Virus record (IMG/VR): IMGVR_UViG_2802429224_000014
Length of the DNA stretch: 11,145 nucleotides
Strand: one strand, 5' to 3'
Origin: a virus
Lineage: Duplodnaviria > Heunggongvirae > Uroviricota > Caudoviricetes
Positions 1-11,145 of the stretch are shown here, piece after piece. Every line of letters begins with the position of its first letter. The stretch's first letter is position 1. The position numbers were made by a program, and so were the translations under genes. The notes below the pieces were generated by a model. The model did not search any database, was not told the origin of the DNA, and saw only the letters and a program-made list of their open reading frames with translations.

Positions 1-537
1 TTACTCGTCCAGCAGCACCACTTTGCCGATATACGGCAGATGACGGTAACGCTGTGCGTAATCGATGCCGTAGCCAACCACAAACTCATCCGGAATAGAG
101 AAACCGATAAATTCTACCGGTACGTTCACTTCACGGCGAGACGGTTTATCCAGCAGCGTACAAATCGCCAACGATTTCGGTTCGCGCAGGCTTAAGATTT
201 CACGCACTTTCGACAGTGTATTACCCGAGTCGATGATATCTTCAACAATCAGCACATCCTTGCCGCGGATATCTTCATCCAGATCTTTGAGGATTTTCAC
301 ATCACGGGTGGTGGACATGCCGCTACCGTAGCTGGAGGCGGTCATAAAATCGACTTCATGAGATACCTGAACTTCACGGCACAGGTCCGCCATAAACATA
401 AATGAGCCACGCAGCAGGCCTACCAGCACCATATCGCTGCCGCTGTCTTTGTAACGCTCAGTAATCTGACGACCCAGTTCAGCGATACGCGCTTTAATCT
501 CCGCTTCGGGGATCATTACTTCTACAATATGTTTCAT
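1..537 (-). CDS. hpt: hypoxanthine phosphoribosyltransferase
   Basis: Complete 178-aa ORF (ATG at 537..535, TAA at 3..1). The translation is essentially identical over its full length to E. coli Hpt as I recall it, including the PRPP-binding motif [13 protein letters not shown]. Confidence 0.96.
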
Positions 538-1117
538 GATTCACATAACCCACTGATTTTTGTCAGTTAAAAACAAATTTACACGTAGCAATTTATCAAA
601 AGTGATACACCGAATGATATACGGATCGATACACAGCGCCACAATCTCAAAAAAGCACCAGCACAATTAGAAGGCCGCGAGTATACAACATCAGAAACAG
701 GAGAGGGCAAAGCACGTAATAATTTTCGTTTTTCACAAACGCAAAAATTTGGCGAGGCTGGCGGTCCCGGCAACATGAAGCTACATAGATTTTGATCCCC
801 TGCATGGTGATGATGCCCATACAGGGCTATTTCATTTCAACGGAACCGGTATGACGAACATGATCGCACCTTCTCCCGAAAACGGTGCGACCTCCATAGA
901 GGAAATGCCTATTCAGATCCCCGGTGATTTTCACCATTCAGAATCTGGAGGGTGAGTTTTCCTGTTTTCCCCAATGGGGGATTCTGGAACAATCAACGGG
1001 TTACGCCTTACCAGCAAAAAAGCACATCAACTGTAACGGAAATCGTTATGGCTGCTGGTGGGCCAAATCATCATTACGGTGATGCAGCTATGTAGACGTT
1101 CCGGTCTCCTCAAATCG

Positions 1118-1320
1118 AGGTTTCCGAAAATATCAGTGAGTTAGCGATTAAGCTGGCGAGTAATTAAACTACGAAAATTTCGTAGTTTGTGACTATCTGA
1201 AAGATAGTCGGTTGATCCGGCCTCAGCCGTTGGCTGTTCCCGAAAATATCAACGGGTTAGGCTGGTTTCCCCGATGTTCGCCGCTGGCGAATTTCGAAAA
1301 TATCAACCAGTTACCGCCGT
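1118..1320 (+). repeat. three direct repeats with core CGAAAATATCA (at about 1125, 1243 and 1296), with two short palindromes between them (ACTACGAAA-A-TTTCGTAGT at 1169..1187; GACTATC-TGAAA-GATAGTC at 1191..1209)
   Basis: Read directly: gtttCCGAAAATATCAgtgagTTAgc / gttcCCGAAAATATCAacgggTTAgg / aattTCGAAAATATCAaccagTTAcc. Function unknown; the third copy overlaps the 3' end of the 1311..1595 ORF. Confidence 0.6.
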
Positions 1321-1595
1321 AACCGTTCCGGTTTCTTCCAGTGGTAAGTATTTTTCGCGCTCTCCCTCCGTTGCTGAGAACGGCGACGACATGCCAGCAA
1401 CTCGAGAACTCTGGTTCGTATGTTGCGCATATCCACGCCGTTAAGCTCGATACCGTCACGGCGCATCACCTCAGCCACTACACGCGCGTAATTTTCGGCT
1501 ACCACGCTGTCCGGCTGCATGGCCTCCTGTTTGCCTGCTGGCGGTCTGATTCCGGCAATCTGGCGAATCATTTTGAGCATTTCGGCTTCGGTCAT
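1311..1595 (-). CDS. hypothetical protein, about 94 aa, start chosen at the second ATG
   Basis: Minus-strand ORF; GGAGG lies 8 nt upstream of the ATG at 1595 (the ATG at 1601 has only a 2-nt spacer). No recognisable motifs. Sits just beyond the cosQ side of cos-A. Confidence 0.4.
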   Translation of the reverse strand: MTEAEMLKMIRQIAGIRPPAGKQEAMQPDSVVAENYARVVAEVMRRDGIELNGVDMRNIRTRVLELLACRRRSQQRRESAKNTYHWKKPERLRR

Positions 1596-1626
1596 TGTCA
1601 TGGCCTCCGTGGTGATGGAAAACAAT

Positions 1627-1845
1627 GCCGTAATTGTGGCGGGTCCTTCCTGGAAAATGAAATACCGGGGGTAGCCATACGCGCAATTCTTAACTGTTTA
1701 TGAAAATTTTTCGGGAAAAGTCAGATCCGTTCTTCTTCTCTGTAACTCATTGTTTAATGGTAAAATCATCAAAAAAAGAAAGGATCTGACAGTGGTCATT
1801 TTGGGCCAAAAATGACGTTATCAGATCCTTTCTCAGTTTTGTTCA
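1627..1845 (+). other. cos-A: lambda-like cohesive-end site in plus orientation (cosQ-like 1638..1653, cosN-like about 1664..1686, cosB with R3-like 1721..1738, IHF-like AT-rich segment 1743..1770, inverted R2-like 1777..1792, R1-like 1821..1836)
   Basis: By eye the sequence follows the lambda cos junction as I remember it: GCGGGTCCTTCCTGG (lambda CGGGTCCTTTCCGG), a GC-rich cosN-like core ACCGGGGGTAGCCATACGCGC, TTTATGAAAATTTTTCGG (lambda TTTATGAAAATTTTCCGG), CCGTTCTTCTTC (present in lambda R3), then GAAAGGATCTGACAG and TCAGATCCTTTCTC (lambda GAAAGGAAACGACAGG and CTGTCGTTTCCTTTCTC). R-site consensus here is TCAGATCC(T/G)TTCT in a direct, inverted, direct arrangement. Confidence 0.7.
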
Positions 1846-1860
1846 ATAATTGCGCGGCTG

Positions 1861-2445
1861 TCACTCACCTTTCTGTTGCCGTAATTTCTCCGGCACGTTT
1901 CCGGTTGTTTCCATCAGGTAGTCCTTCAGAATGCGGGGCAGGTTATCGGCAGTTTTAGCGCACGCATTACAGACGCGTGCTGTTTCTTTCCTCAGGCCCT
2001 CGATCATTGCCGGAGTCATCGCGGGGAACTGCCTTTGCATTGTGAGCGGTAAACTATCCATGATCGAAGAAATCTGGCGCGCCAGACCACGAAGCGCATA
2101 GAGAACGAACTCAGTATCTGTAACTTCCCCCGTCTCTCTGGCGTTCTTCAGTTCCTGCCCGTCCGCCTGTGCTTTGGTAAGACGGTAGCGTTCGTACTCT
2201 GTTGTGCCTGGCTGTAAATCTGATTCACCAGCAGCACGTAAATCATCAAGCTCCCTGCGGAGTTTTTCGTTTTCGATGTCCTTCTCCCTCTGTGCATACC
2301 ATTCGATCACCTGTGCAGAGTCGAAAGTCACTTCCACACCTTTACCCCCACCAGATACATGGGGAAGCCCTTGCGTTTGCCATCGTTCAATCGTGCGCGG
2401 ATCGACGCCAAAAATCTTCGCAATATTATTTTTATTAACATTCAT
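1861..2445 (-). CDS. terminase small subunit, lambda Nu1-like
   Basis: 194-aa ORF with AAGGAA RBS 7 nt upstream of the ATG at 2445. The N-terminal half aligns by eye with lambda Nu1 (MNVNKNNIAKIFGVDPRTIERWQTQGLPHVSGGGKGVEVTFDSAQVIEWY...IENEKLRREL...DLQPGTTEYERYRLTKAQADGQELKNAR versus lambda MEVNKKQLADIFGASIRTIQNWQEQGMPVLRGGGKGNEVLYDSAAVIKWY...). Confidence 0.9.
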   Translation of the reverse strand: MNVNKNNIAKIFGVDPRTIERWQTQGLPHVSGGGKGVEVTFDSAQVIEWYAQREKDIENEKLRRELDDLRAAGESDLQPGTTEYERYRLTKAQADGQELKNARETGEVTDTEFVLYALRGLARQISSIMDSLPLTMQRQFPAMTPAMIEGLRKETARVCNACAKTADNLPRILKDYLMETTGNVPEKLRQQKGE

Positions 2446-2459
2446 CTATCAATTCCTTA

Positions 2460-2668
2460 TCAAAAACCAGTTCCGACATGAAACGCCAAAAAAACAGGAT
2501 TTTTGGGCTTTATGATGTCGTATGTTTCTGGTGGTTGATTTTAATAAAAACAAACAGTTATGCGCGAGAAGTACCGACATGCTTTTTCCTGAAAAATTTT
2601 CATAAACAGTTAAGAATTGCGCGTACACGTACCCCCGGTGTTTCAGATTCCGGAAAGGACCCGTGAAA
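2460..2668 (-). other. cos-B: second lambda-like cos site, in minus orientation, immediately upstream of the Nu1-like gene (cosQ-like 2651..2664, cosN-like about 2620..2642, R3-like 2565..2582, R2-like about 2513..2527, R1-like 2467..2482)
   Basis: The reverse complement reads CGGGTCCTTTCCGG (identical to the lambda cosQ-proximal motif), ACACCGGGGGTACGTGTACGCGC, TTTATGAAAATTTTTCAGG, then GCATGTCGGTACTTCTCG, CATAACTGTTTGTTTTTATTAAAATCAACC (lambda CATAACTTAATGTTTTTATTTAAAATACC), GAAACATACGACATCAT and TTCATGTCGGAACTGG. The cosQ/cosN part is about 85% identical to cos-A with a 35-bp perfect core at 2591..2625 matching 1677..1711 inverted; the R-site consensus differs (CATGTCGGxAC). Confidence 0.7.
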
Positions 2669-2696
2669 ATTGGGGTGATCACCACCGTTCCGGACA

Positions 2697-2729
2697 CAAA
2701 AAAATCGCGAGGCCTTGCCAACCTCGCGA
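2697..2729 (-). terminator. rho-independent terminator between the capsid operon and cos-B/TerS
   Basis: On the minus strand, TCGCGAGG-ttggcaagg-CCTCGCGA hairpin (8-bp stem) followed by TTTTTTTGTGT, 14 nt after the stop of the 141-aa ORF. Confidence 0.6.
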
Positions 2730-2742
2730 ACGTTCATTTCAG

Positions 2743-3168
2743 TTACTTAACAGACAGCAACAGCTTTTCATCTTCGGTCAGTCCGGCGTTACCATCACCG
2801 GCTGCTGGCCCAACACATTTCGGGCTGTGCTTTTCCATGTACGCATCAAACAAAAAAGCCGTTTTCTTTTCCTGCATCATTGCCTGGGCATCCACAGTAG
2901 CCAATAACGTTTGTGCATAGGTTACTGTCATTGCTTCAGAATCACACTCAATCAGCTTACTGGTGAACTCAGGGTATTTTGATGCCAGCGGTAAAGCCTT
3001 GATACCCTCTATGCGCTGTTTATCACTCTCAGCCTTTGCAGTAAGCACCGTTCGGGCTTCTGTCAGTGATGCGCCATTATTCGCGAGATTTTCCGCAAGC
3101 GTCTGGTATTTCTGCGCTTCAGGCAGTGCCATGATCAATGCTCTGGTTGAATTTGCTTTCTCAGTCAT
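2743..3168 (-). CDS. hypothetical head-associated protein, 141 aa (possible scaffold or packaging-accessory role; unassigned)
   Basis: ORF in the capsid operon directly downstream of the gpD-like gene, with a 14-bp gap. No confident similarity recognised; position relative to E/D parallels lambda FI but the sequence does not obviously match. Confidence 0.55.
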   Translation of the reverse strand: MTEKANSTRALIMALPEAQKYQTLAENLANNGASLTEARTVLTAKAESDKQRIEGIKALPLASKYPEFTSKLIECDSEAMTVTYAQTLLATVDAQAMMQEKKTAFLFDAYMEKHSPKCVGPAAGDGNAGLTEDEKLLLSVK

Positions 3169-3182
3169 AAATCACCACAAAA

Positions 3183-3512
3183 TTATTGCCCTAAAGGCTG
3201 TACGGAAATACCGGAACCAACAAAAGCCGACACTTTTTTCTCGAACGTGTCCGCTGTATCAGGCCAGTTAATTTCATCGATATTAAAAACCCCGCACTTA
3301 TAAACCTGTGCGCGGTTTTTTGTGGCCGTGTTAATGTCCGATATGGTCAGATACACCGCCTTACCGGGTGTACCGTCCCACTCAACCATCAGGCCTGCGC
3401 CGTTCTGCATCAGCGGAGTTCTCGCTTTAATTTCTCCGGCACTGGCAAAACAGGCCAGCGTGCTGACCAGTTCCTGCGTGCCGGAAAGTAATTGCGTGTA
3501 AGGTGTTGGCAT
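3183..3512 (-). CDS. head decoration protein, lambda gpD-like
   Basis: 109-aa ORF with AAGGGGA RBS. Shares the gpD pattern by eye: TPLM...WDGT...YKxGxF...WP...AFxGxxIS (lambda ...[21 protein letters not shown]...[36 protein letters not shown]). Confidence 0.85.
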   Translation of the reverse strand: MPTPYTQLLSGTQELVSTLACFASAGEIKARTPLMQNGAGLMVEWDGTPGKAVYLTISDINTATKNRAQVYKCGVFNIDEINWPDTADTFEKKVSAFVGSGISVQPLGQ

Positions 3513-3522
3513 ACGATCCCCT

Positions 3523-4578
3523 TTATTTCACTTCGACGGTAACAAAGCGACCAATATCCACGGGTACTGGCTGCGGGGCGCTGTGCGTCTGCACGTATTC
3601 AATCGCCGGATCGCCCGGTACGATATAATTTTTCGGGTAGTACATCCCCTCAGAAAATCCCTCGCGTGCCGCGTCCTGATCCATGATGGCACCATAAGCA
3701 ACAAGGCCTTTATTTTCGGTATTGCCGAAAACCATCATGTTTTGTTTCAGGAAATATTGCTGCTGCCCGTTTTCGTCGTCATAACGACCGGAATAAACCA
3801 CGAGCGCCACATCACCGAGATACCCCTTGAAGCTGACAACGCCGCCCAAATCTTTTAGCGCAAGTTCAAGTGACGAGTTTGAACCGCGACGCGTGTCCAG
3901 GAGTTCGCGGAATCGACGGAACGAGCGCAAAATACGCCAGGCTTCGCCACCCATGACGATAATATTTACCGTACCTTCGGAAAAATCAGCGTAAGCCTCA
4001 ATGTCGCTTATCGGATCAAACGTTTCGGCATCCTGTTTTGACCATTCTTTCCCGCCAGCCTGCGTAATATGATTGGTTGCGGGTAATCCCCAGTCAATTT
4101 CATAACGCTCAATGCCTTCGCCCTCAATAACGTTACGGCCTGTTGTGATGGCATTGACCGCCAGCCATTCAACACGCGCTTTGATGGCTGCAAGCTGTTT
4201 TTTCTGGCTGTCGTGAACCATTTTTACGCGGCGTAGTGCCGGGGAAGACTGACCATTGCCGATCTGTTCTCCAGCCATGCGCATGATTGTTTTAGTGGGA
4301 TCAATAACGTGTTTGGGCTTCATATAACCCGGCGTGAAAGTGTTCGTTGTAAAACCTTTGTCACGCATAACCTGACTGCCTGACATTGGTGAACAAAACG
4401 GACTCATGACCACGTTTTCAATGTCCAGCGTATCAAGCGCAATATCTCGCGTACTGAACGTGGCGATATTCGGAAAAAACAGCGTCGTAAAGAGCGGATT
4501 AAATTTAAATTCCGGCACATCTTCGCGCCCGATATTTTTCAGTAGCGTTGGTGTGCTTACCAGTTGCAGCGCTGTCAT
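3523..4578 (-). CDS. major capsid protein, lambda gpE-like
   Basis: 351-aa ORF, start overlapping the upstream stop (ATGA). Conserved gpE blocks recognisable by eye: FKFNPLF..LFF, FTPGYMKPKH, ITQAGGKEWSK, DIEAYA, VNIIV, LDTRRGSNSSLE..LKDLG..VSFKGYLGDVALVVYSGRY, YPKN, GDPA, SAP. Confidence 0.93.
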   Translation of the reverse strand: MTALQLVSTPTLLKNIGREDVPEFKFNPLFTTLFFPNIATFSTRDIALDTLDIENVVMSPFCSPMSGSQVMRDKGFTTNTFTPGYMKPKHVIDPTKTIMRMAGEQIGNGQSSPALRRVKMVHDSQKKQLAAIKARVEWLAVNAITTGRNVIEGEGIERYEIDWGLPATNHITQAGGKEWSKQDAETFDPISDIEAYADFSEGTVNIIVMGGEAWRILRSFRRFRELLDTRRGSNSSLELALKDLGGVVSFKGYLGDVALVVYSGRYDDENGQQQYFLKQNMMVFGNTENKGLVAYGAIMDQDAAREGFSEGMYYPKNYIVPGDPAIEYVQTHSAPQPVPVDIGRFVTVEVK

Positions 4579-4784
4579 TGCTCACCCCCATGAGGCTGAT
4601 TCATGCCAAGCGCAGCGCGTAAATGGCTGCGTACCATCCAGCCGACTGACGGCTTCACCAGGCACAACGGATCAAGGCCGACTTTTTTTCCTGCCTCTGC
4701 GTTCTCCTCAAAGCGCGCATTAAGTGCGGCGATAATATCGGGGCTGATGTACACGGATACACCGCCCGGCTTCTGTGTTCCCAT
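4575..4784 (-). CDS. hypothetical protein, 69 aa, first gene of the capsid operon
   Basis: The ATG at 4784 is preceded by AAGAGGAA at 8 nt; the longer track ORF from 4850 lacks an RBS. Translationally coupled to the capsid gene. No motif recognised. Confidence 0.5.
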   Translation of the reverse strand: MGTQKPGGVSVYISPDIIAALNARFEENAEAGKKVGLDPLCLVKPSVGWMVRSHLRAALGMNQPHGGEQ

Positions 4785-4833
4785 AAATGAGATTCCTCTT
4801 TGACTAAAAAACAAACATAACGAAAAGTCAGTC

Positions 4834-4866
4834 ATGATTTTAATCATCATTGCATTTTTTGCAATG
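4834..4866 (-). promoter_or_regulatory. candidate sigma70 promoter for the capsid operon, overlapped by two palindromes
   Basis: Minus strand: -35 TTGCAA (4864..4859), 16-bp spacer, -10 TAAAAT (4842..4837), about 45 nt upstream of the 69-aa ORF. Overlapping inverted repeats CATTGCA-ttttt-TGCAATG (4848..4866) and ATGATT-tt-AATCAT (4834..4847). Confidence 0.4.
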
Positions 4867-4947
4867 CAATTGACTGTTGTTGCAAATCATGAAATTATCA
4901 CGCCGTGGTTTTATCACCCCAAACCGCATTAATGGTCATTGCATGAA

Positions 4948-4981
4948 ATCCCCCGGAACCTCATCCCGGGGGATTTTTTTT
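4948..4981 (+). terminator. rho-independent terminator on the plus strand
   Basis: ATCCCCCGG-aacctcatc-CCGGGGGAT hairpin (9-bp stem) followed by T8. No plus-strand gene lies upstream; see findings for a candidate short plus-strand transcript. Confidence 0.55.
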
Positions 4982-4984
4982 GCG

Positions 4985-5012
4985 CACAAAAAAACCGGGA
5001 AAAATCCCGGCT
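4985..5012 (-). terminator. rho-independent terminator after the SSB-like gene
   Basis: On the minus strand, CCGGGA-tttt-TCCCGG hairpin followed by TTTTTTTGTG, about 16 nt after the SSB-like stop codon. Confidence 0.6.
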
Positions 5013-5027
5013 TCTGTCACTCGTTGC

Positions 5028-5450
5028 TTAAAACGGTATGTTATCCCCGTACGGATCATCATTTCCCGCCTGTTGTTTTGCCCTGTTCAGTGCGTCAGTA
5101 GCCTGGCCCTGCTGGCCTTTTTTGCCGCCCGGTCGCGCCGTTCGCGCACTGATTACACTGTCTGCGATAACCTGCCAGCCCTGCCGCGTTTCGCCGTTCT
5201 GGCCTGTCCACTGGCTTACCTGCATGTTACCCGCCACGCTCACCAGTTCGCCTTTGTGGTGCCTGGCCAGTGCGTCGGCCTGTCTGCCAAACGCCAGGAC
5301 GGATAACCACATCGTCGCCGTTCCGTCATCGGCCTGGCTGCACGGCAGGGGAACCGCCATACTCGCCATCGCCATTTGTGTCCCTTTGCTGGTGGTCTTT
5401 AACTGCGGGTCAGCCACCAGCCGCCCGTAAGCCGCTATCTGTGCTGTCAT
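5028..5450 (-). CDS. single-stranded DNA-binding protein, short SSB-like
   Basis: 140-aa ORF with GGAGAG RBS, ending in DDPYGDNIPF, which resembles the acidic SSB C-terminal tip (E. coli SSB ends DDDIPF). The preceding Gly/Gln-rich linker and N-terminal region are consistent with an OB fold. Confidence 0.75.
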   Translation of the reverse strand: MTAQIAAYGRLVADPQLKTTSKGTQMAMASMAVPLPCSQADDGTATMWLSVLAFGRQADALARHHKGELVSVAGNMQVSQWTGQNGETRQGWQVIADSVISARTARPGGKKGQQGQATDALNRAKQQAGNDDPYGDNIPF

Positions 5451-5698
5451 GCTGTCTGCTCTCCGGTTTTAACGTTGATGGTTGTCACCTGTTCCGCTTC
5501 GGCAATCTCCCGTTCTGTCAGCGTGGCAAAGTTTGCCGCCGCCGTGGTCATGAATGCGCTTATCAGTTCGGGATGTGCTTTCGCGTATCCTTCTCCGGCA
5601 TGGCGGTCTATTGTTCTGATTGCCACCTTTAAGGCGTGCTCTGTCATGTCTAATGCGCGATATTTTGGCGCTGTCTTATCTCTGGTTTTTCTGGTCAT
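5447..5698 (-). CDS. hypothetical protein, 83 aa
   Basis: ORF whose stop overlaps the SSB-like start; RBS spacing at the first ATG is poor (GAGGA 1 nt before ATG), so the start is uncertain. No motif recognised. Confidence 0.45.
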   Translation of the reverse strand: MTRKTRDKTAPKYRALDMTEHALKVAIRTIDRHAGEGYAKAHPELISAFMTTAAANFATLTEREIAEAEQVTTINVKTGEQTA

Positions 5699-5699
5699 T

Positions 5700-5898
5700 C
5701 CTCACTACCACTCACTTTTATTACTCACTTTTTAAACCTACTCACTTCGCCTCACTTGAGATTAATTGTTTTCGTATCTGTATGTTTCATAAATATTTTT
5801 TCACCGCTCACTTTTTTGGGTGTATACAGGTGAGAAAGTGAGTAATTGTGTTAATTATTTGTAAAATTCTCACTATCACTCACTTTTACTCCTCACTT
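5700..5898. repeat. iteron array (at least 10 copies of CTCACT(TTT), some inverted) around an AT-rich core; putative replication origin
   Basis: Read directly: ctcactaccactcacttttattactcactttttaaacctactcacttcgcctcacttgag ... AT-rich 5761..5800 ... gctcactttttt ... gtgagaaagtgagtaa (inverted) ... ctcactatcactcacttttactcctcactttt. Lies immediately downstream of the primase/ATPase gene. Confidence 0.6.
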
Positions 5899-5899
5899 T

Positions 5900-7306
5900 T
5901 TACAGTGGTCCTACATCATCGCCGTCGATGTGAATCACGCCGTCTTTTTCCAACTTGGATAGCCAGCGCCGCATATTTTTCACATCGTACCCAAGCCTTT
6001 TCATGTCATCGCGCAACAACGGGATAGTGCATTTATCGCCTCGCTGTATGCGTGAACGGATACAGCCCCAAAGCGCTGTATGATTCTCCGTCTTGTTCCC
6101 GGCCTCCTCGATGCGTTCCAGTTCAGCAGGGGCGCGGGGAACGTCAATCACCACCATGGACACAATCTCTTCGCCATCTGTATCGGTAAACACCTCCACG
6201 CTTTTAAGGTCGTATGCGCTTTCTTTTGGCTCCTCTGCGTCCTTCATCTTCGTACACGCCGCCACCAGTGCTGTAACGTCTGAATTTTCCCGGCTGATTC
6301 GGTACTCTGCATCCAGTGCAGCACGGAATGCGCTGGAACCACGCGCCCCCTTTGTTTCATCCTTGCCGGAATGGTGAACCACCAGCACCGTGGCCCCTGT
6401 GGCCTGCTTTATCGCGTCACACCCCTGGATAAATGCGCCCATATCACGGGAATCATTTTCATCATTCCCACCAAAGCAACGGGCCAGCGTGTCTATCACA
6501 ATCAGCCGCACATTTTCGCCCGTTCTGCTCTTAACAAGTCCGGCAGTCCTGATAACCTGCTCCACATAGTCAGGCGATGCAGGGAAGACAGGCGCGTTAA
6601 CGATGCACAAATCCGTAACCACCTTGTCGTGGGTTATCTCCCACGCCTTAACGCGGCGTTTTACGCCCATGCTGCCTTCACCAGCGATATAGATAACCGC
6701 GCCCTTACTGACCCTGCGACCTCCCCATGCCATACCTGTGGCAACATGGCACGACCAGGAAATGGCGAGGAACGATTTATAAGAACCGCTGGCCCCGTAG
6801 GTGCTGCATAATGATTCAGCCGGAATAAGCCCCTTAATTACGTAGCTTTGCTGCGCGTCGAATCCCTCAGAACCCCATGAGATGGGAAGTGTGATTTTTC
6901 GCTTTCCACCATTCATGACCAGGCTTTCCCCACGTTCCCAGGTTTCTTTAAGGCGCGGTAGTTGCTCGCTCCAGTCCTCCAGTAGTTCGAAATTCTCTGA
7001 AAGTAACCGCGCTTCCCGGACACCTGCGATCGCCAGTTTGGTGGCAATGGTCAGCATCTGCATATCGTCCAGGTTTCCGGCGCGTATGACCTTTGCTCTG
7101 TATCGTCCTTCATCAACAATCTGTAAATTGTCCAGTTCGCTTAACTGATAACGGCCCAGGTAAACCGGAGGGATGGGATCGCCTGCTTTTTTGGCCTGTG
7201 CAATCATGTAATGTTCTGCAAAGGAGTGAGCATTATCACCCGCAAAAATAACCGCCTCAGTGTGTTTATCTTTCGGTAACAGTTTTACGTTTGGTGCCAG
7301 TTTCAT
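5900..7306 (-). CDS. replication protein: primase-like N-terminal region fused to a RecA-like (AAA_25/RepA-type) ATPase
   Basis: 468-aa ORF with AGAGGT RBS. Walker A-like GASGSYKS and Walker B-like RLIVIDTLARCF are visible, followed by VLVVHHSGKD. The domain order is typical of satellite/PICI primase-replicase proteins; assignment is by motif, not search. Confidence 0.85.
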   Translation of the reverse strand: MKLAPNVKLLPKDKHTEAVIFAGDNAHSFAEHYMIAQAKKAGDPIPPVYLGRYQLSELDNLQIVDEGRYRAKVIRAGNLDDMQMLTIATKLAIAGVREARLLSENFELLEDWSEQLPRLKETWERGESLVMNGGKRKITLPISWGSEGFDAQQSYVIKGLIPAESLCSTYGASGSYKSFLAISWSCHVATGMAWGGRRVSKGAVIYIAGEGSMGVKRRVKAWEITHDKVVTDLCIVNAPVFPASPDYVEQVIRTAGLVKSRTGENVRLIVIDTLARCFGGNDENDSRDMGAFIQGCDAIKQATGATVLVVHHSGKDETKGARGSSAFRAALDAEYRISRENSDVTALVAACTKMKDAEEPKESAYDLKSVEVFTDTDGEEIVSMVVIDVPRAPAELERIEEAGNKTENHTALWGCIRSRIQRGDKCTIPLLRDDMKRLGYDVKNMRRWLSKLEKDGVIHIDGDDVGPL

Positions 7307-7602
7307 TTTTTACCTCTGGATGCGCTGAGCATGCTTTTTATTTTCTTAATATTTTCCCGTGCTTTTTCCCTGCTGGTGGGCTTACCGCGTGTTGCGTTCT
7401 GTACCAGAGAAAAATCACGCCGGAACTGATAAACAGGCATCACGCAGTCATAGCCGTACCCATCACGGCGGTAAGTAACACACCGTCCCGCCACGCTTTT
7501 AATCGTTACAGTGCCGCCGTATTTATCTTTGAAAATATCGCCGGGGCAGATTTCAGGCCGAGGGAGGCCGCTGGCAGTAAAGCCAGAATTTTTCTGTTTC
7601 AT
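7303..7602 (-). CDS. hypothetical protein, 99 aa
   Basis: ORF with GGAGAA RBS; its stop overlaps the primase start (ATGA), suggesting translational coupling. Function unknown. Confidence 0.55.
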   Translation of the reverse strand: MKQKNSGFTASGLPRPEICPGDIFKDKYGGTVTIKSVAGRCVTYRRDGYGYDCVMPVYQFRRDFSLVQNATRGKPTSREKARENIKKIKSMLSASRGKK

Positions 7603-7607
7603 GGTTT

Positions 7608-7835
7608 TTATTCTCCGGTGTGATGCGTTTTATTATTCTCGTGAATTGCCATCACCGTATTTAATTCGTTAATTACTGGCGTTAATAATGTGTGCACGGC
7701 AGAAAACATCATGGGATATGATTCATCGCCATTTTCCGGCACTTCCATTAACTTAAGTAATAATGCCTCCATTTCCTTTGCGCGGATTAATGCATTCTCA
7801 GAATGAATAAGAACATCAAAGGGTATTTTATGCAT
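7608..7835 (-). CDS. hypothetical protein, 75 aa
   Basis: ORF with strong RBS AGGAGGTGA 4 nt upstream of the ATG; overlaps the upstream gene by 8 bp. Function unknown. Confidence 0.55.
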   Translation of the reverse strand: MHKIPFDVLIHSENALIRAKEMEALLLKLMEVPENGDESYPMMFSAVHTLLTPVINELNTVMAIHENNKTHHTGE

Positions 7836-8025
7836 GACTCACCTCCTGACGAATACGGGCGACGAATACAGCGACACAACCGGACGGGCAACGGTTACGC
7901 GCTTCGCGTTCTGTCCATGCGGTGACGTGGATGATTTGAGATTCTCCGGCACTCAGTGCCAGAAAACGCCACACAAAGGCCGTTTGTGTGTGCGCTAGGC
8001 GTGGGGTATGCTGTCTTACAGCCAT
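7828..8025 (-). CDS. hypothetical protein, 65 aa, first gene of the leftward replication operon (alternative start at 8040)
   Basis: GAGAGGT RBS 7 nt upstream of the ATG at 8025; the ATG at 8040 has no RBS. Function unknown. Confidence 0.45.
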   Translation of the reverse strand: MAVRQHTPRLAHTQTAFVWRFLALSAGESQIIHVTAWTEREARNRCPSGCVAVFVARIRQEVSHA

Positions 8026-8110
8026 AAAACTACCTCTCATAACGGTTTGTGGTTATAAGCCCTGCCAGTGGTAACGACACTTGCGGGGCTTTGCTTTTTG
8101 CGCCGATTGT

Positions 8111-8129
8111 GTGTAATGTGTCATTACAC
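8111..8129. promoter_or_regulatory. operator-like perfect inverted repeat GTGTAATG-tgt-CATTACAC in the divergent promoter region, with a third CATTACA half-site at 8137..8143
   Basis: Read directly; lies between the leftward operon (start 8025) and the plus-strand Arc-like gene (start 8159). Confidence 0.5.
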
Positions 8130-8158
8130 ATAAATACATTACATGAGGTGTAATTAAC

Positions 8159-8338
8159 GTGTCAACACACAAAAACGAAAGGCGTGGTAATCCTCCGTTC
8201 CAGTTCCGTTTAGATCCTGACTTACGGGAAAAGATGGAAAAAGCACAACAACAGGACGGCGATGATTCTCTTGCTGCCTGGATAAAGCGAATAATCCGCA
8301 AAGAATTACAACAGCGCGGTATCGAGCCAAAAGGCTGA
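8159..8338 (+). CDS. Arc/MetJ-type ribbon-helix-helix DNA-binding protein, 59 aa, GTG start
   Basis: Absent from the ORF track (GTG start, under 60 aa). GAGGTG RBS 8 nt upstream. Translation VSTHKNERRGNPPFQFRLDPDLREKMEKAQQQDGDDSLAAWIKRIIRKELQQRGIEPKG has the basic N-terminus, beta-strand, two-helix layout of Arc-family repressors. It is the only convincing plus-strand gene in the island. Confidence 0.65.
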   Translation: MSTHKNERRGNPPFQFRLDPDLREKMEKAQQQDGDDSLAAWIKRIIRKELQQRGIEPKG

Positions 8339-8427
8339 TAATCCACCAGCAAGCCAGCACACTGATCACATTGCCCACCAGCCAGCAAATCGCTATGATG
8401 TTCGGGCTTATGTTTAGTGTTTTCATT

Positions 8428-8455
8428 GGCGACCGCCCCCGGTCGCCTTTGTTTT
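8428..8455 (+). terminator. rho-independent terminator downstream of the Arc-like gene
   Basis: GGCGACCG-cccc-CGGTCGCC hairpin (8-bp perfect stem) followed by TTTGTTTT on the plus strand; no T-tract on the minus strand. Confidence 0.6.
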
Positions 8456-8475
8456 ATGTGTCATATACTCCCCCC

Positions 8476-8760
8476 TTATGCAGCTTTCTTACCGTACGGA
8501 TTATTGACTTTATCTACAGCAGGTGGGTTACGAACCCACCAAAGCACATCAGAGAGAAGCCACGCACAGCTATTGCGCCCGAAATGACAACGAAGCGGGA
8601 AACGCCCTTCATTTTCCATTTTGAAGCGAGTTGAGCGCGACAGACTGGTGATTTCCTGGCATTCCTTTTCACGGATACGGCGATCAAATTCAAAACCGTA
8701 TTCTTCAAGAAGCGCCCGGCGTTGTTCTGGAGTTGGGGGAATGAATGTAGTTTTTGTCAT
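8476..8760 (-). CDS. alpA: AlpA-family transcriptional regulator / excisionase-like HTH protein
   Basis: Start taken at the ATG at 8760 (GGAGG RBS 4 nt upstream), giving 94 aa. Contains the AlpA signature EITSLSRSTRFKMENEGRFPLRCHFGRNSCAWLLSDVLWWV (compare the family pattern LSRSTIYR...GxFP...W...V..W). Confidence 0.8.
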   Translation of the reverse strand: MTKTTFIPPTPEQRRALLEEYGFEFDRRIREKECQEITSLSRSTRFKMENEGRFPLRCHFGRNSCAWLLSDVLWWVRNPPAVDKVNNPYGKKAA

Positions 8761-8842
8761 ATTGCCTCCACTGTATCTATGCTTGCGGAGGCTATTTTGC
8801 AATCTTTAATACTGGATTAAAATACAGTAGTAATCATAGAAA

Positions 8843-8875
8843 CATACTGATAATGCTTATAAATATATCAGTATG
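8843..8875. promoter_or_regulatory. perfect 10-bp inverted repeat CATACTGATA-N13-TATCAGTATG upstream of alpA
   Basis: Read directly in the AT-rich region between the 309-aa gene and alpA; candidate operator in the alpA promoter. Confidence 0.45.
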
Positions 8876-8897
8876 CTTAGGAGTATATGAGTAAGGC

Positions 8898-9827
8898 TTA
8901 CTGCGACCTTTCACTCGGCCTCTTATGAGCATTACTTAAAATTGCTGCTATTTTTGTTTCTGTTTTTATTGGCAATTCACTATTAATGAACCAATCAGGT
9001 CTGGCGATCAACTCACGAGCCCAAGCAGAATAGTTAATCGTTCCATCGTTTTTTCTGCAGGTCTCATTAAAAGTATTTTGTTGCTCTTCTTTAAAACGCA
9101 TAGCAACCATTAAAATTTGCTCTCGATTTCTTGCATGTCTTTCAGCAGAATGGTGCACAATTTCATTGCCATTCATCTTGTGAGGTTCTACAGATTCAAA
9201 ATTATCTGTTAGCGTAAAATAATCGCCACCACAGTCAAGAAGTCGCCTTATATCATGAGCGGTAATCCACAAGTCATTTATAGAAATATTATTCTTTAAT
9301 ATTTGATCGTCTTCTTCATCATAATCACTATCTTCACCAACCATTAAAAGTTGTACGGCAGGATTATCAGTTTCTGGATGACACGGGGTTAATTCAAAAC
9401 CACTTAGGGAATACTCTCCAAAATTTTGTAGCTCTTCCAGCCCACTCCAAAGGCGCCACAATCCATAAGCCCTACCAATAGAGCTAAAGCATCCGTTTTC
9501 TGAGTCTTGACCGAATAAAGGCGCGTGTATAGTTTCATCTGTCTCCTCGTTATAATTGTATCTGAAAAGATGAAATCTGGAGTATTCAGTAATATTGTTC
9601 CCCATCAGTGATGTGGTCGATTTTGCATTTCTGGTATCAAACCAAGCAGTTGCAGACTTGCTATCAGTATTCATATATAAAACAGCGCGAGCATCAAATA
9701 AATTTAGGCATAAAGCTATTTTTTTAGTAACACCTAAATTCACGAGATCGCTAATCTCGCAACCCAGCAATCTTGATGCACGTTCAATGTTGCAATACTG
9801 AAAAGGAATTTTAATGTCGTTAGCCAT
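8898..9827 (-). CDS. hypothetical protein, 309 aa, AT-rich orphan gene between int and alpA
   Basis: Long ORF with GAGGG RBS 5 nt upstream of the ATG. Visibly AT-richer than the rest of the island. No catalytic motif recognised; the N-terminal 40 aa could form an HTH, followed by an acidic stretch DSDYDEEDD. Confidence 0.7.
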   Translation of the reverse strand: MANDIKIPFQYCNIERASRLLGCEISDLVNLGVTKKIALCLNLFDARAVLYMNTDSKSATAWFDTRNAKSTTSLMGNNITEYSRFHLFRYNYNEETDETIHAPLFGQDSENGCFSSIGRAYGLWRLWSGLEELQNFGEYSLSGFELTPCHPETDNPAVQLLMVGEDSDYDEEDDQILKNNISINDLWITAHDIRRLLDCGGDYFTLTDNFESVEPHKMNGNEIVHHSAERHARNREQILMVAMRFKEEQQNTFNETCRKNDGTINYSAWARELIARPDWFINSELPIKTETKIAAILSNAHKRPSERSQ

Positions 9828-9918
9828 TGCGCTACCCTCAACGCCCTAAATACTTTACGAGCCAGGCGGGTAGGGTTTCCCGCTTTTCGGTTGGCCGACC
9901 TATGCCCGTAATATCAGT

Positions 9919-11145
9919 TTAACCTCTATTCGATACAGGTAACAGCACCACATTTTGATGATTACCCGCCAGAAGTTCTAATCGGCCATACCACTTATTC
10001 AACGCATCCATTTTCTCAGGTAAGTACAGACTACGGTTATAAATAGCCATCACCCCCGGCAATGCATGACCAAGTAAAAGCTCTACAATATGTGGCGCAA
10101 TACCCATATTATTTAAACCTGTAGAAAATGTTCTGCGCAAATCGTGAAGCGTCCATGGCTCATTATGATGAAAATCTTTGTATAGCCTACGCCCTTTAAG
10201 CGAAGCAGCCTGGCGGGAACGTTCTTCACCCAGTACAATTCCTGTTTTTCCCGTTTCCTTTTTTAGATCCTCAATCCATGGGCGAATGCCCTCTGGAATT
10301 GGACGAACTATTTTTTCACGAGTTTTGCTGTGTTCTTTAGGAACCGTCCAAATCCATGACTGAAAATCCCATTCACTCCACCGGGATAATCTTACTTCCA
10401 TTGTTCGCGCCCCAAACAGCACAAGCAACTTAAGCAGACGAAGATAATAAAGTTGCTGTTCATCGCTATAAGTACACCGCCATACATCAGCTAACTCACT
10501 ATCTGACAGCACCCTATCACGCTGCCCCGATGGTTGCCCTACATCCTGGATTGTCATAAAAGCCAGGGCATCACATGAGGCATAACGGCGAACCTTGCAG
10601 AATCTTAAGGCCTGTTTACAAATCTGGAACATTCGCCCGGCAGTGATTGGCCTGGACTGGTTAATTTCATCAAAACATGCCACCCAGTGACGCGTTTCAC
10701 ACCGGGATAACGGATAGTGGCCAAGACGCGGATAAATATGCTTACGTAATTGCGCCCGCACCAGTTCCTCGTCACTACGTTTTTTTCTTGCGTAATGAAT
10801 TAGCCAATATTCAAGGGCATCATGGACAGTTACGGGGTTAAGGTTTTCTTCTGCGCTAAGTTCTAATTCAAGTCGTGGATTCAGCCCTTCCGCATACCAT
10901 TTTCGGCATAGTTCCCTCTTCTCCCTAGCCATTTTCAACGACATGTCAGGGTAACGCCCAAGAACAATGCGCTCTAACTTGCTCCCACGCCCACCAAGAC
11001 GATAAGAGAAAACCCAACTAATGCATCCCATCATGGATACTTTGATGCTTAATCCTTCACCATCCGCAATGGTAATTACTGAATCCCGCTTTACGCCGAG
11101 AAGCGATCTTAATTTTTTATCACTCAGTTTGTTTGTGCCAGCCAC
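9919..11145 (-). CDS. int: tyrosine recombinase/integrase, P4-family; N-terminus at or just beyond the window edge
   Basis: 408 codons from a GTG at the window edge to TAA at 9921..9919. N-terminal region resembles the P4-type integrase arm-binding domain (KLSDKKLRSLLG...ADGEGLSIKVS). C-terminal catalytic residues are visible: HDLRRTF, LLGHA and a tyrosine in AIYNRS. Confidence 0.92.
   Translation of the reverse strand: MAGTNKLSDKKLRSLLGVKRDSVITIADGEGLSIKVSMMGCISWVFSYRLGGRGSKLERIVLGRYPDMSLKMAREKRELCRKWYAEGLNPRLELELSAEENLNPVTVHDALEYWLIHYARKKRSDEELVRAQLRKHIYPRLGHYPLSRCETRHWVACFDEINQSRPITAGRMFQICKQALRFCKVRRYASCDALAFMTIQDVGQPSGQRDRVLSDSELADVWRCTYSDEQQLYYLRLLKLLVLFGARTMEVRLSRWSEWDFQSWIWTVPKEHSKTREKIVRPIPEGIRPWIEDLKKETGKTGIVLGEERSRQAASLKGRRLYKDFHHNEPWTLHDLRRTFSTGLNNMGIAPHIVELLLGHALPGVMAIYNRSLYLPEKMDALNKWYGRLELLAGNHQNVVLLPVSNRG

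Follow-up and report, generated by a model that had tools for sequence, protein, structure and literature searches.

A probable EcCICFT073-type phage-inducible chromosomal island at hpt, with a complete terminase small subunit and two inverted cos sites

Introduction

What kind of element has come to lie beside hpt, the gene for hypoxanthine phosphoribosyltransferase, in the IMG/VR virus record IMGVR_UViG_2802429224_000014? The record is classified among the Caudoviricetes (Duplodnaviria; Heunggongvirae; Uroviricota) and is 11,145 nucleotides long; this whole stretch is referred to here as the window, with positions counted from its first letter. A sequence-only reading had described a satellite-like island inserted beside hpt, at the place where gcd is found in E. 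coli K-12. Such a locus raises the questions of where the island begins and ends, what class of element it represents, how its DNA is packaged and which phage might act as its helper. The evidence points to an answer to which we assign a probability of about 85%, namely that a Gram-negative phage-inducible chromosomal island (PICI) of 10.8 kb lies almost entirely within the window and that it belongs to the EcCICFT073 family and to the published subfamily that integrates at hpt. The element is a further member of the hpt PICIs and not a new kind; both the family and the hpt site have already been published.

EcCICFT073, from E. coli CFT073, has been shown experimentally to be a satellite that is mobilized by lambda and phi80 (PMC6092414, PMC6739421). 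The hpt-integrated PICIs, 49 in number, were described as a new subfamily by Tommasini, Mageeney and Williams in 2023 (PMC10111431). In the present analysis, protein and RNA families were assigned by Pfam, PHROGs, NCBIfam and Rfam scans of the open reading frames (ORFs) and DNA of the window. Genes lie on the minus strand unless stated otherwise.

Integration at the start of hpt

The hpt gene (1..537; Pfam Pribosyltran) is intact and, as had been claimed, nearly identical to its E. coli counterpart, with 176 of the 178 residues matching K-12 Hpt. One of the two differences, T4I, lies at the junction, where ATT replaces ACT as codon 4, and the other is a conservative I174V. The closest complete genome is that of E. 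coli HNSQ2209, which is 98.4% identical across the whole window and is annotated with the gene order can-hpt-island-gcd-cueO. The junctions were located by a base-by-base reading of the window, HNSQ2209 and the empty site of K-12, and are formed by an attachment (att) core of 19 bp, CTTCTACA[A/G]TATGTTTCAT. The copy on the hpt side, CTTCTACAATATGTTTCAT, occupies 519..537, where it extends over codons 1-6 of hpt, the start codon included. Unrelated DNA stands directly after it in the window, such that divergence from K-12 begins immediately upstream of the hpt ATG. The second copy, CTTCTACAGTATGTTTCAT, is found at window-equivalent positions 11322-11340 in HNSQ2209, and the native hpt-gcd spacer comes next; over the start of hpt, the empty K-12 site reads ...CTTCTACAGTATGTTTCAT and then atctctaacc.... 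The two cores differ at a single base, the ninth, which is A in the window and G in the HNSQ2209 copy. Because this one mismatch separates them, the crossover would most likely have occurred within TGTAGAAG.

Read in this way, the island extends from 538 to about 11321, a distance of 10,803 bp from core to core, with its right end about 180 bp outside the window. The sequence-only reading had placed the start at 1311, some 1.3 kb from hpt, and this has to be corrected, since the att core covers the hpt start codon and the DNA from 538 onward, including 538-1310, belongs to the island. Its view that the insertion lies between hpt and gcd stands, but gcd has been neither lost nor replaced: the gene is intact in HNSQ2209 at window-equivalent 11546-13936, about 400 bp past the integrase gene, and has simply been displaced by 10.8 kb. 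The comparison with the hpt-gcd region of reference genomes that it had proposed as a check has thus yielded both the exact junctions and the direct att repeats. The window itself has the same coordinates as the IMG/VR provirus call IMGVR_UViG_2718218172_000007, the ends of which coincide with the stop codon of hpt and the start codon of int, and this trimming at gene ends explains why the host gene hpt is inside the window while the right att site and gcd are outside. No tRNA or tmRNA that could have served as an integration target is present within the window.

The same junction is known from published elements. The hpt PICIs, such as Eco10586.16.hpt, share with the island the target gene, the att identity block TATGAAACATA and the ATT-for-ACT signature at codon 4 (PMC10111431 and its supplement). 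They differ in that the published examples compared here, which are part of the published set, are 15-16 kb long and have a different int-proximal arm, whereas the island is 10.8 kb; no hpt element of 10-12 kb was found in the text supplements of PMC10111431. At the hpt side of the island, the segment 538..834 replaces the native hpt upstream region and is peculiar to hpt-integrated elements. Of 5426 complete E. coli genomes, only 9 contain it at a coverage of at least 80%, and relatives at other att sites align only from about 824-835 onward, with 835-1310 common to them. The replication-plus-late block recurs elsewhere in the company of other integrases; in strain CEA224S, for instance, it lies at tRNA-Pro. 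As the insertion replaces the native upstream region, transcription of hpt must now depend on a promoter within the island; a consensus promoter scan of 538-834 gave no sigma-70 site.

A satellite by gene content

The class of the element can be judged from its genes. The sequence-only reading had taken it to be a helper-dependent satellite and not a decayed prophage, and this is upheld both by synteny with the tested satellite EcCICFT073 and by the presence, in canonical order, of all five SatelliteFinder core PICI functions (integrase, regulator, primase/replicase, capsid-like protein and small terminase), as judged by comparing gene content with the published definition (PMC10085698). The integrase is a tyrosine recombinase of 408 aa that is transcribed inward (9919..11145; Pfam Arm-DNA-bind_3, Phage_int_M and Phage_integrase), and shares 47% identity with the integrase of EcCICFT073 and 52% with that of a Photorhabdus PICI-like element. 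The regulator is an AlpA-family regulator/excisionase (8476..8802; Pfam Phage_AlpA, 3.8e-11). Replication is assigned to a RepA-type helicase with an AAA_25 domain (5900..7306; Pfam AAA_25, 7.7e-43; phrog_2850, 3.8e-187), which also matches helicase/primase PHROGs and is named 'helicase RepA family' by PGAP. Just downstream of the helicase gene lies a replication origin (5701..5902), in which a cluster of AAGTGAG iterons, eight exact copies and some degenerate ones, surrounds an AT-rich core. The claim of an origin here is strengthened by the count, as all 8 exact copies in the window fall within 5711-5898, where 0.98 would be expected, and none of 200 shuffles reaches 8. The major capsid protein is of the lambda gpE type (3523..4578; Pfam Phage_cap_E, 2.9e-47, full length) and is 65% identical to c1499 of EcCICFT073; the small terminase is described in the next section.

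Grouped by function, the island has an integration module (int, the int-alpA RNA motif, a 309-aa partner protein and AlpA), a small regulatory zone (the Arc-like and Icd-like proteins), a replication module (helicase, iteron origin and SSB) and a 'late' zone that runs from the capsid, decoration and scaffold-like genes through cos1, terS and the inverted cos2 to a 94-aa gene.

Further traits of Gram-negative PICIs are seen in the inward-facing int followed by alpA, the element's own replication module with an iteron origin, a size within the range of about 10-15 kb, synteny and homology with a proven member, and cos sites related to those of lambdoid helpers. The likeness to EcCICFT073 is extensive. 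Both elements are of the same size class and have the order int, alpA, an opposite-strand YlcI/Arc-like gene, Icd-like, DUF4222, replication, iteron origin and SSB, followed by an E-type capsid gene, a D-type decoration gene, a scaffold-like gene, a packaging gene between two inverted cos sites and a terminal gene of 93/94 aa, with TAACCCGTTGATATTTTCG repeats past the last gene in both. The two differ outside the packaging region in that EcCICFT073 has a primase in place of the RepA-type helicase, and in that the island carries an additional 309-aa gene between int and alpA, lacks a PerC gene and is located at hpt instead of between roxA and phoQ, the site of EcCICFT073 in CFT073.

The lambdoid origin of the Nu1-, E-, D- and Nu3-like genes and of the cos sites could also be explained if the island were the remnant of a decayed lambdoid prophage that has retained int, a few head genes and cos. 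We regard this as very improbable. The window scans returned no pseudogenes, no truncated phage genes and no cI, cro, N or Q fragments, and no ORF in the window matches a portal, TerL, protease, tail or lysis family in the Pfam and PHROGs scans; the modular layout without tail or lysis genes that had been read from the sequence is thus also what the Pfam, PHROGs and NCBIfam assignments give. Moreover, an inward int followed by alpA is the layout of a PICI and not of a prophage (PMC10111431), the replication module and origin are the island's own and are not those of lambda, and the same compact architecture is found again at other att sites and in CFT073.

Less probable still is an assignment to the capsid-forming PICIs (cf-PICIs) or to the P4-like satellites. 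The cf-PICIs, such as EcCIEDL933, are likewise integrative elements that combine int and alpA with capsid and TerS genes of their own, and elements of Morganella have the same int-309-aa-alpA module as the island. However, cf-PICIs are reported to carry the whole head and packaging set (bioRxiv 10.1101/2022.09.08.507074) and require only tails from the helper, whereas the island has only capsid, decoration, scaffold-like and TerS genes, and is without portal, protease, connectors and TerL. The Morganella elements, for their part, have a capsid of the HK97 type with its protease and portal. With P4-like satellites the island shares only the Icd-like and AlpA-like genes, and the P4 alpha primase, sid, psu and delta were not found in the Pfam, PHROGs and NCBIfam scans.

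A complete terminase small subunit between two inverted cos sites

With the island placed among the EcCICFT073-type PICIs, the packaging region is where it departs most clearly from the type member. The position of rppA in EcCICFT073 is taken here by a gene for a full-length terminase small subunit (TerS) of the Nu1 family (1861..2445; 194 aa; Pfam Phage_Nu1, 4.5e-67, covering 1-162 of 164 model positions). The protein is 68% identical to PhiR5_1 Nu1, 57% to gp1 of phage 21 and 51% to lambda Nu1, and the similarity includes the C-terminal region, which in lambda TerS binds the terminase large subunit, TerL (PMC9026076). No BLASTP similarity to RppA is found.

Upstream of terS, in the phage arrangement, lies the first cos site, cos1 (2446..2671, minus strand), which was delimited by alignment to the cos regions of lambda, phage 21 and PhiR5_1. 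Together with the terS gene it is 73% identical by blastn to the phage 21 cos plus gene 1 region. It contains a cosQ-like GGGTCCTTTCCGG at 2650-2662, the conserved TTTATGAAAATTTT block and a predicted cohesive-end site, GGTACGTGTACG, at 2622-2633. When read against the R3/I1/R2/R1 annotation of phage 21, cos1 also shows phage-21-type binding sites with CATGTCGG cores, comprising R3 (2566-2581), an inverted R2 (about 2513-2523) and R1 (2470-2480), in the order R3/I1/R2/R1. At residues 17-24 the island TerS reads RTIERWQT and that of phage 21 RTIERWQS, with 7 of 8 positions in agreement, and because this phage-21-like segment is paired with phage-21-type R sites, TerS and cos1 look cognate from their sequences. 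In all, the island resembles phage 21 and PhiR5_1 in TerS and in the cosQ, the spacing, the IHF site and the three CATGTCGG-type R sites of cos1; it differs from them in having no TerL gene after terS, in 7 of the 12 cohesive-end positions and in a 12-residue C-terminal extension of TerS.

The second site, cos2 (1632..1860, plus strand), is inverted relative to cos1 and is recognized from an inverted repeat, a palindrome and alignments to lambda and phage 21 cos. It has a cosQ-like sequence at 1641-1653, a predicted cohesive-end site, GGTAGCCATACG, at 1670-1681, an R3-like site at 1720-1738, an IHF-like site at about 1740-1759 and an R2/R1-like palindrome at 1777-1833. Its R sites are lambda-like (R3, inverted R2, R1), with CAGATCC where lambda has CGTTTCC. 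The inverted repeat measures 124 nt (1632-1755 and 2548-2671; 78%) and brackets the packaging gene. Such twin inverted cos sites might be taken as a novelty, but EcCICFT073 has the same arrangement, with two lambda cosN sequences (GGGCGGCGACCT) in a 77-nt inverted repeat on either side of rppA. Both of its sites have been shown to be functional; cos1 is required for transfer, and deletion of cos2 slightly raises it (PMC6092414).

In EcCICFT073 the cosN is that of lambda, whereas in the island it is not. Over the 12 bp of cosN, cos1 and cos2 agree with the lambda cohesive end GGGCGGCGACCT at 5 of 12 positions, in a register uncertain by about 2 bp. The lambda cohesive end was also sought in the window as a whole, where matches with three or fewer mismatches are no more frequent than by chance. 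The sequence-only reading had predicted packaging of the lambda cos/Nu1 type with a lambda-type helper terminase. The first part is supported; as to the second, with only 5 of 12 positions matching the lambda cohesive end, the helper terminase may belong to a lambdoid subgroup other than lambda itself.

The contrast with the Rpp-type cos PICIs extends beyond cosN. In these elements, an Rpp protein (RppA, RppB or RppC) of about 144-153 aa forms a heterodimer with the TerS of the helper, and cosB is without R2, R1 and I1. Thus, the 144-aa Rpp of EcCICFT073 pairs with helper TerS, whereas the island has a complete 194-aa Nu1-family TerS and, in cos1, a full phage-21-type cosB with R3-I1-R2-R1. 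A functional parallel may be offered by those Staphylococcus aureus pathogenicity islands that encode TerS, in which the satellite TerS redirects the helper TerL to satellite DNA (PMC6739421), as may also be the case for the island. Those elements, however, use headful (pac) packaging and a Ppi protein that blocks the helper TerS, whereas the island has cos sites and a TerS of the Nu1 family.

A cosN class with a variable center and its candidate helpers

The cohesive-end sites of the island belong to a wider class. A search of IMG/VR with the cosN pattern GGGGGTA-N4-TACGCGCAA returned satellite-sized contigs and one viral contig of 47 kb, in which the cosN is placed as in a phage, with a TerS gene and sequence homologous to TerL downstream of it. 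The same class of cosN is present in a prophage of E. coli CEA224S that has holin, endolysin, cos, TerS, TerL and portal genes. Across 18 aligned sites, an invariant CGGGGGT and an invariant ACGCGCAA flank a variable 6-bp center, for which six versions are seen (AGCCAT, ACGTGT, AGGCAT, CATAGC, ACGGGT and ACGGAT), two of them in this island. The class is found in satellites of the E. coli type as well as in at least two lambdoid phages or prophages. In two compared loci, sites of the class lie at 6578-6619 and, in the CEA224S stretch NZ_CP166080.1 1103336-1110259, at 3491-3532.

The helper is probably a lambdoid prophage of the same cosN class (CGGGGGT-N6-ACGCGC), for example of the CEA224S type. 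Strains CEA224S and C5 each hold such a prophage together with a relative of the island, and because of this shared residence the CEA224S-type prophage is the best helper candidate; the two combinations are accordingly candidate satellite-helper pairs. In CEA224S the compared loci are NZ_CP166080.1 1103336-1110259 and 2390370-2407367, and the relative of the island, at tRNA-Pro, has the same replication and late modules with a different integrase. The range of helpers may be wider, since the nuclease of TerL, as described by Murialdo and Feiss, has little sequence specificity and depends on TerS for its positioning.

A number of observations weigh against the reading developed so far. The exact cos1 core is found in IMG/VR in three satellite-sized contigs, including the window, and in no helper phage, and the cores of cos1 and cos2 are both unlike that of the candidate CEA224S helper. 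Of the 12 positions of the predicted cohesive-end site, 7 also depart from those of lambda and of phage 21, and cos2 is followed by no TerS gene of its own but only by the 3' end of terS. The PhiR12 phages (for PhiR12_1 the stretch compared was PV340549.1 24542-25725) have a TerS of the CEA224S-prophage type and CATGTCCGG R sites, but a lambda-type cosN, GGGCGGCGACCT; because CEA224S-type TerS and lambda cosN are paired in these phages, cosN class and TerS/cosB type are not closely linked and reassort independently among lambdoid phages. The helper candidates were identified in CEA224S and C5, and the right junction is taken from the 98.4%-identical HNSQ2209 and not from the window. Finally, we infer excision, replication, packaging and helper identity in every case from homology to EcCICFT073 and phage 21.

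A proposed route of mobilization

On this basis the following course may be proposed. Lytic growth of a lambdoid helper would turn on the alpA operon, and Int and AlpA would then excise the island, which the helicase would replicate from the iteron origin into concatemers. The island TerS, with its phage-21-like recognition helix, would bind R3-I1-R2-R1 of cos1, and its C-terminal domain would recruit the helper TerL to nick the adjoining cosN. The DNA would be packaged from cos to cos into heads built by the helper, to which helper tails would be added. Capture of TerL for cos1 should also lower the packaging of the helper itself, so that a complete TerS would do what Rpp does in EcCICFT073. 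Four island genomes amount to 43.2 kb, which, next to the 48.5 kb of lambda and the 45-50 kb of the lambdoid genomes compared, is within the lambda-sized range and would be consistent with multimer packaging.

The head genes of the island invite a different view of this last step. The gpE-like capsid protein, the gpD-like decoration protein and the Nu3-like scaffold could build satellite-sized heads on the portal and protease of the helper, and such heads would take one or two genomes of 10.8 kb and shut out the helper genome. All three genes are intact, full-length and conserved in distant members of the family (65% identity for the capsid protein and 28% for the scaffold-like protein), capsid genes are the commonest late genes of Gram-negative PICIs (PMC10111431), and PmCI172, which also has a capsid homologue, makes small capsids (PMC6092414). 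We nevertheless consider it unlikely that the island builds heads of its own. EcCICFT073 has homologues of both the capsid protein (c1499) and the decoration protein (c1500) (PMC6092414), and deletion of either left its interference unrelieved (PMC6092414, PMC6739421). It is reportedly packaged as multimers in phage-sized heads (PMC6092414), PICI capsid genes are reportedly dispensable for transfer (PMC10111431), and the island encodes neither a portal nor a protease.

The variable center of cosN suggests a further and more novel possibility. If the nicks were placed at the conserved flanks, each element would receive 'barcoded' cohesive ends, and the complete TerS would represent a route of TerL hijacking that is distinct from that of Rpp. 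This is a speculative suggestion, to which we attach a low probability; if it were true, the genomes of satellite and helper, or molecules initiated at cos1 and cos2, could not anneal together.

Other genes and features of the island

Between int and alpA, where an 'orphan' gene had been noted, lies the AT-rich gene (36-39% GC) for a 309-aa protein that belongs to no family and has an unrecognized fold (8898..9827). It is no orphan, being the conserved partner of this type of integrase in other satellites. Its homologues form only 21 clusters, none with a Pfam domain, and all names assigned by the sources are of Enterobacterales. In elements of Photorhabdus and Morganella the homologue occupies the same slot, about 93 nt after an integrase of 406-408 aa and just before alpA; the Photorhabdus element has PICI-type int, alpA, AntA and primase genes. 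In three compared loci the homologue is at 8001-8948 (one locus) and 8001-8951 (two loci). As homologues keep this slot across genera, the gene is not random cargo. The AlphaFold model of the protein is confident and has no significant match among solved structures. One possible role is that of a hitherto missing regulator, acting on induction or on excision.

An int-alpA RNA motif (Rfam RF02996; 9844..9910, minus strand) lies in the 91-nt spacer that follows int; it is matched over the full length of the model with 55.2 bits, where the gathering score is 35.8 (E 1.8e-9). Downstream of alpA, the sole gene on the opposite strand encodes a 59-aa Arc-like or YlcI/YnfO protein (8159..8338, plus strand; phrog_228 Arc-like repressor, 2.1e-6; a weak, sub-threshold NCBIfam match to YlcI_YnfO_N), and a YlcI/YnfO gene is syntenic in EcCICFT073. 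It is followed by genes for an Icd-like protein, of the family of P4 Icd-type cell-division inhibitors (7828..8040; NCBIfam phage_ICD_like, 1.1e-17, over the cut-off, with PHROG matches in addition), a 75-aa protein (7608..7835; phrog_2196, 3.3e-9) and a DUF4222 protein (7303..7602; Pfam, 4.1e-24), the last of which is in the same position in EcCICFT073.

The replication gene appears as a swapped module within the family: this island and many relatives have the AAA_25 helicase, and its place is taken by a 'DNA primase family protein' in EcCICFT073 (27242-28996 of the compared stretch) and in STEC313 and C311, which are otherwise close relatives of the island. Between the origin and ssb is the gene for an 83-aa protein (5447..5698; phrog_1231, 1e-50), and ssb itself encodes the single-stranded DNA-binding protein SSB (5028..5450; Pfam SSB, 8.6e-16). 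The region 4807-5013, which includes the 177-nt spacer between ssb and the following 69-aa gene and the adjoining sequence to its left, gives several sub-threshold Rfam matches on both strands, of which the best reaches 33.6 bits where the gathering score is 60. Such matches are probably due to chance, and the region may be structured.

Next is the gene for the 69-aa protein (4575..4784; phrog_3255, 1.8e-24), which is syntenic with a small gene upstream of the EcCICFT073 capsid gene. After the capsid gene come the genes for a head decoration protein of the lambda gpD type (3183..3512; Pfam HDPD, 4.9e-8, over the gathering score and in agreement with the HNSQ2209 annotation) and a 141-aa scaffold-like protein of the lambda Nu3 or gpC C-terminal type (2743..3168). 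The latter matches positions 500-577 of 583 of the head maturation protease family phrog_53 (E 1.6e-8) and corresponds to a syntenic 137-aa protein of EcCICFT073, from which the 28% identity given above is taken; a terminator-like hairpin follows its gene at 2705-2729. Beyond cos2, the last gene of the island encodes a 94-aa protein (1311..1595; phrog_1561, E 2e-47; no Pfam family) that is 68% identical to the product of the last gene of EcCICFT073.

Past this gene is a non-coding, hairpin-rich region (940..1320; RNA fold z = -5.3), conserved in the family, with four copies of a short hairpin plus TTCCGAAAATATCAACGGGTTAG, termed D1 (960-1004, 1100-1144, 1216-1260 and 1270-1314). Further palindromes are present at 1168-1218 inside the block. 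EcCICFT073 has two copies of the motif, as its reverse complement TAACCCGTTGATATTTTCG, downstream of its own last gene. The D1 repeats were considered as arm sites for the hpt integrase, which is unlikely, as the block is also present in the tRNA-Pro relative, with its different integrase, and in EcCICFT073.

Implications

The main value of these results is a clean annotation, in which a provirus call filed as viral is seen to be a PICI-type satellite with exact junctions. A compact, TerS-bearing element of 10.8 kb joins the published group of hpt PICIs, and current understanding is not overturned. For the host, the insertion alters the promoter and the fourth codon of hpt, a housekeeping gene of purine salvage. 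Only two leads go beyond published work, namely the variable-center cosN class and the 309-aa protein linked to int. Within the family, the island stands in contrast to the Rpp paradigm, as it combines the same chassis and the same twin inverted cos sites with a complete TerS and a matching phage-21-type cosB. A comparison with EcCICFT073 could explain the retention of a whole TerS in some islands and of only a DNA-binding decoy in others.

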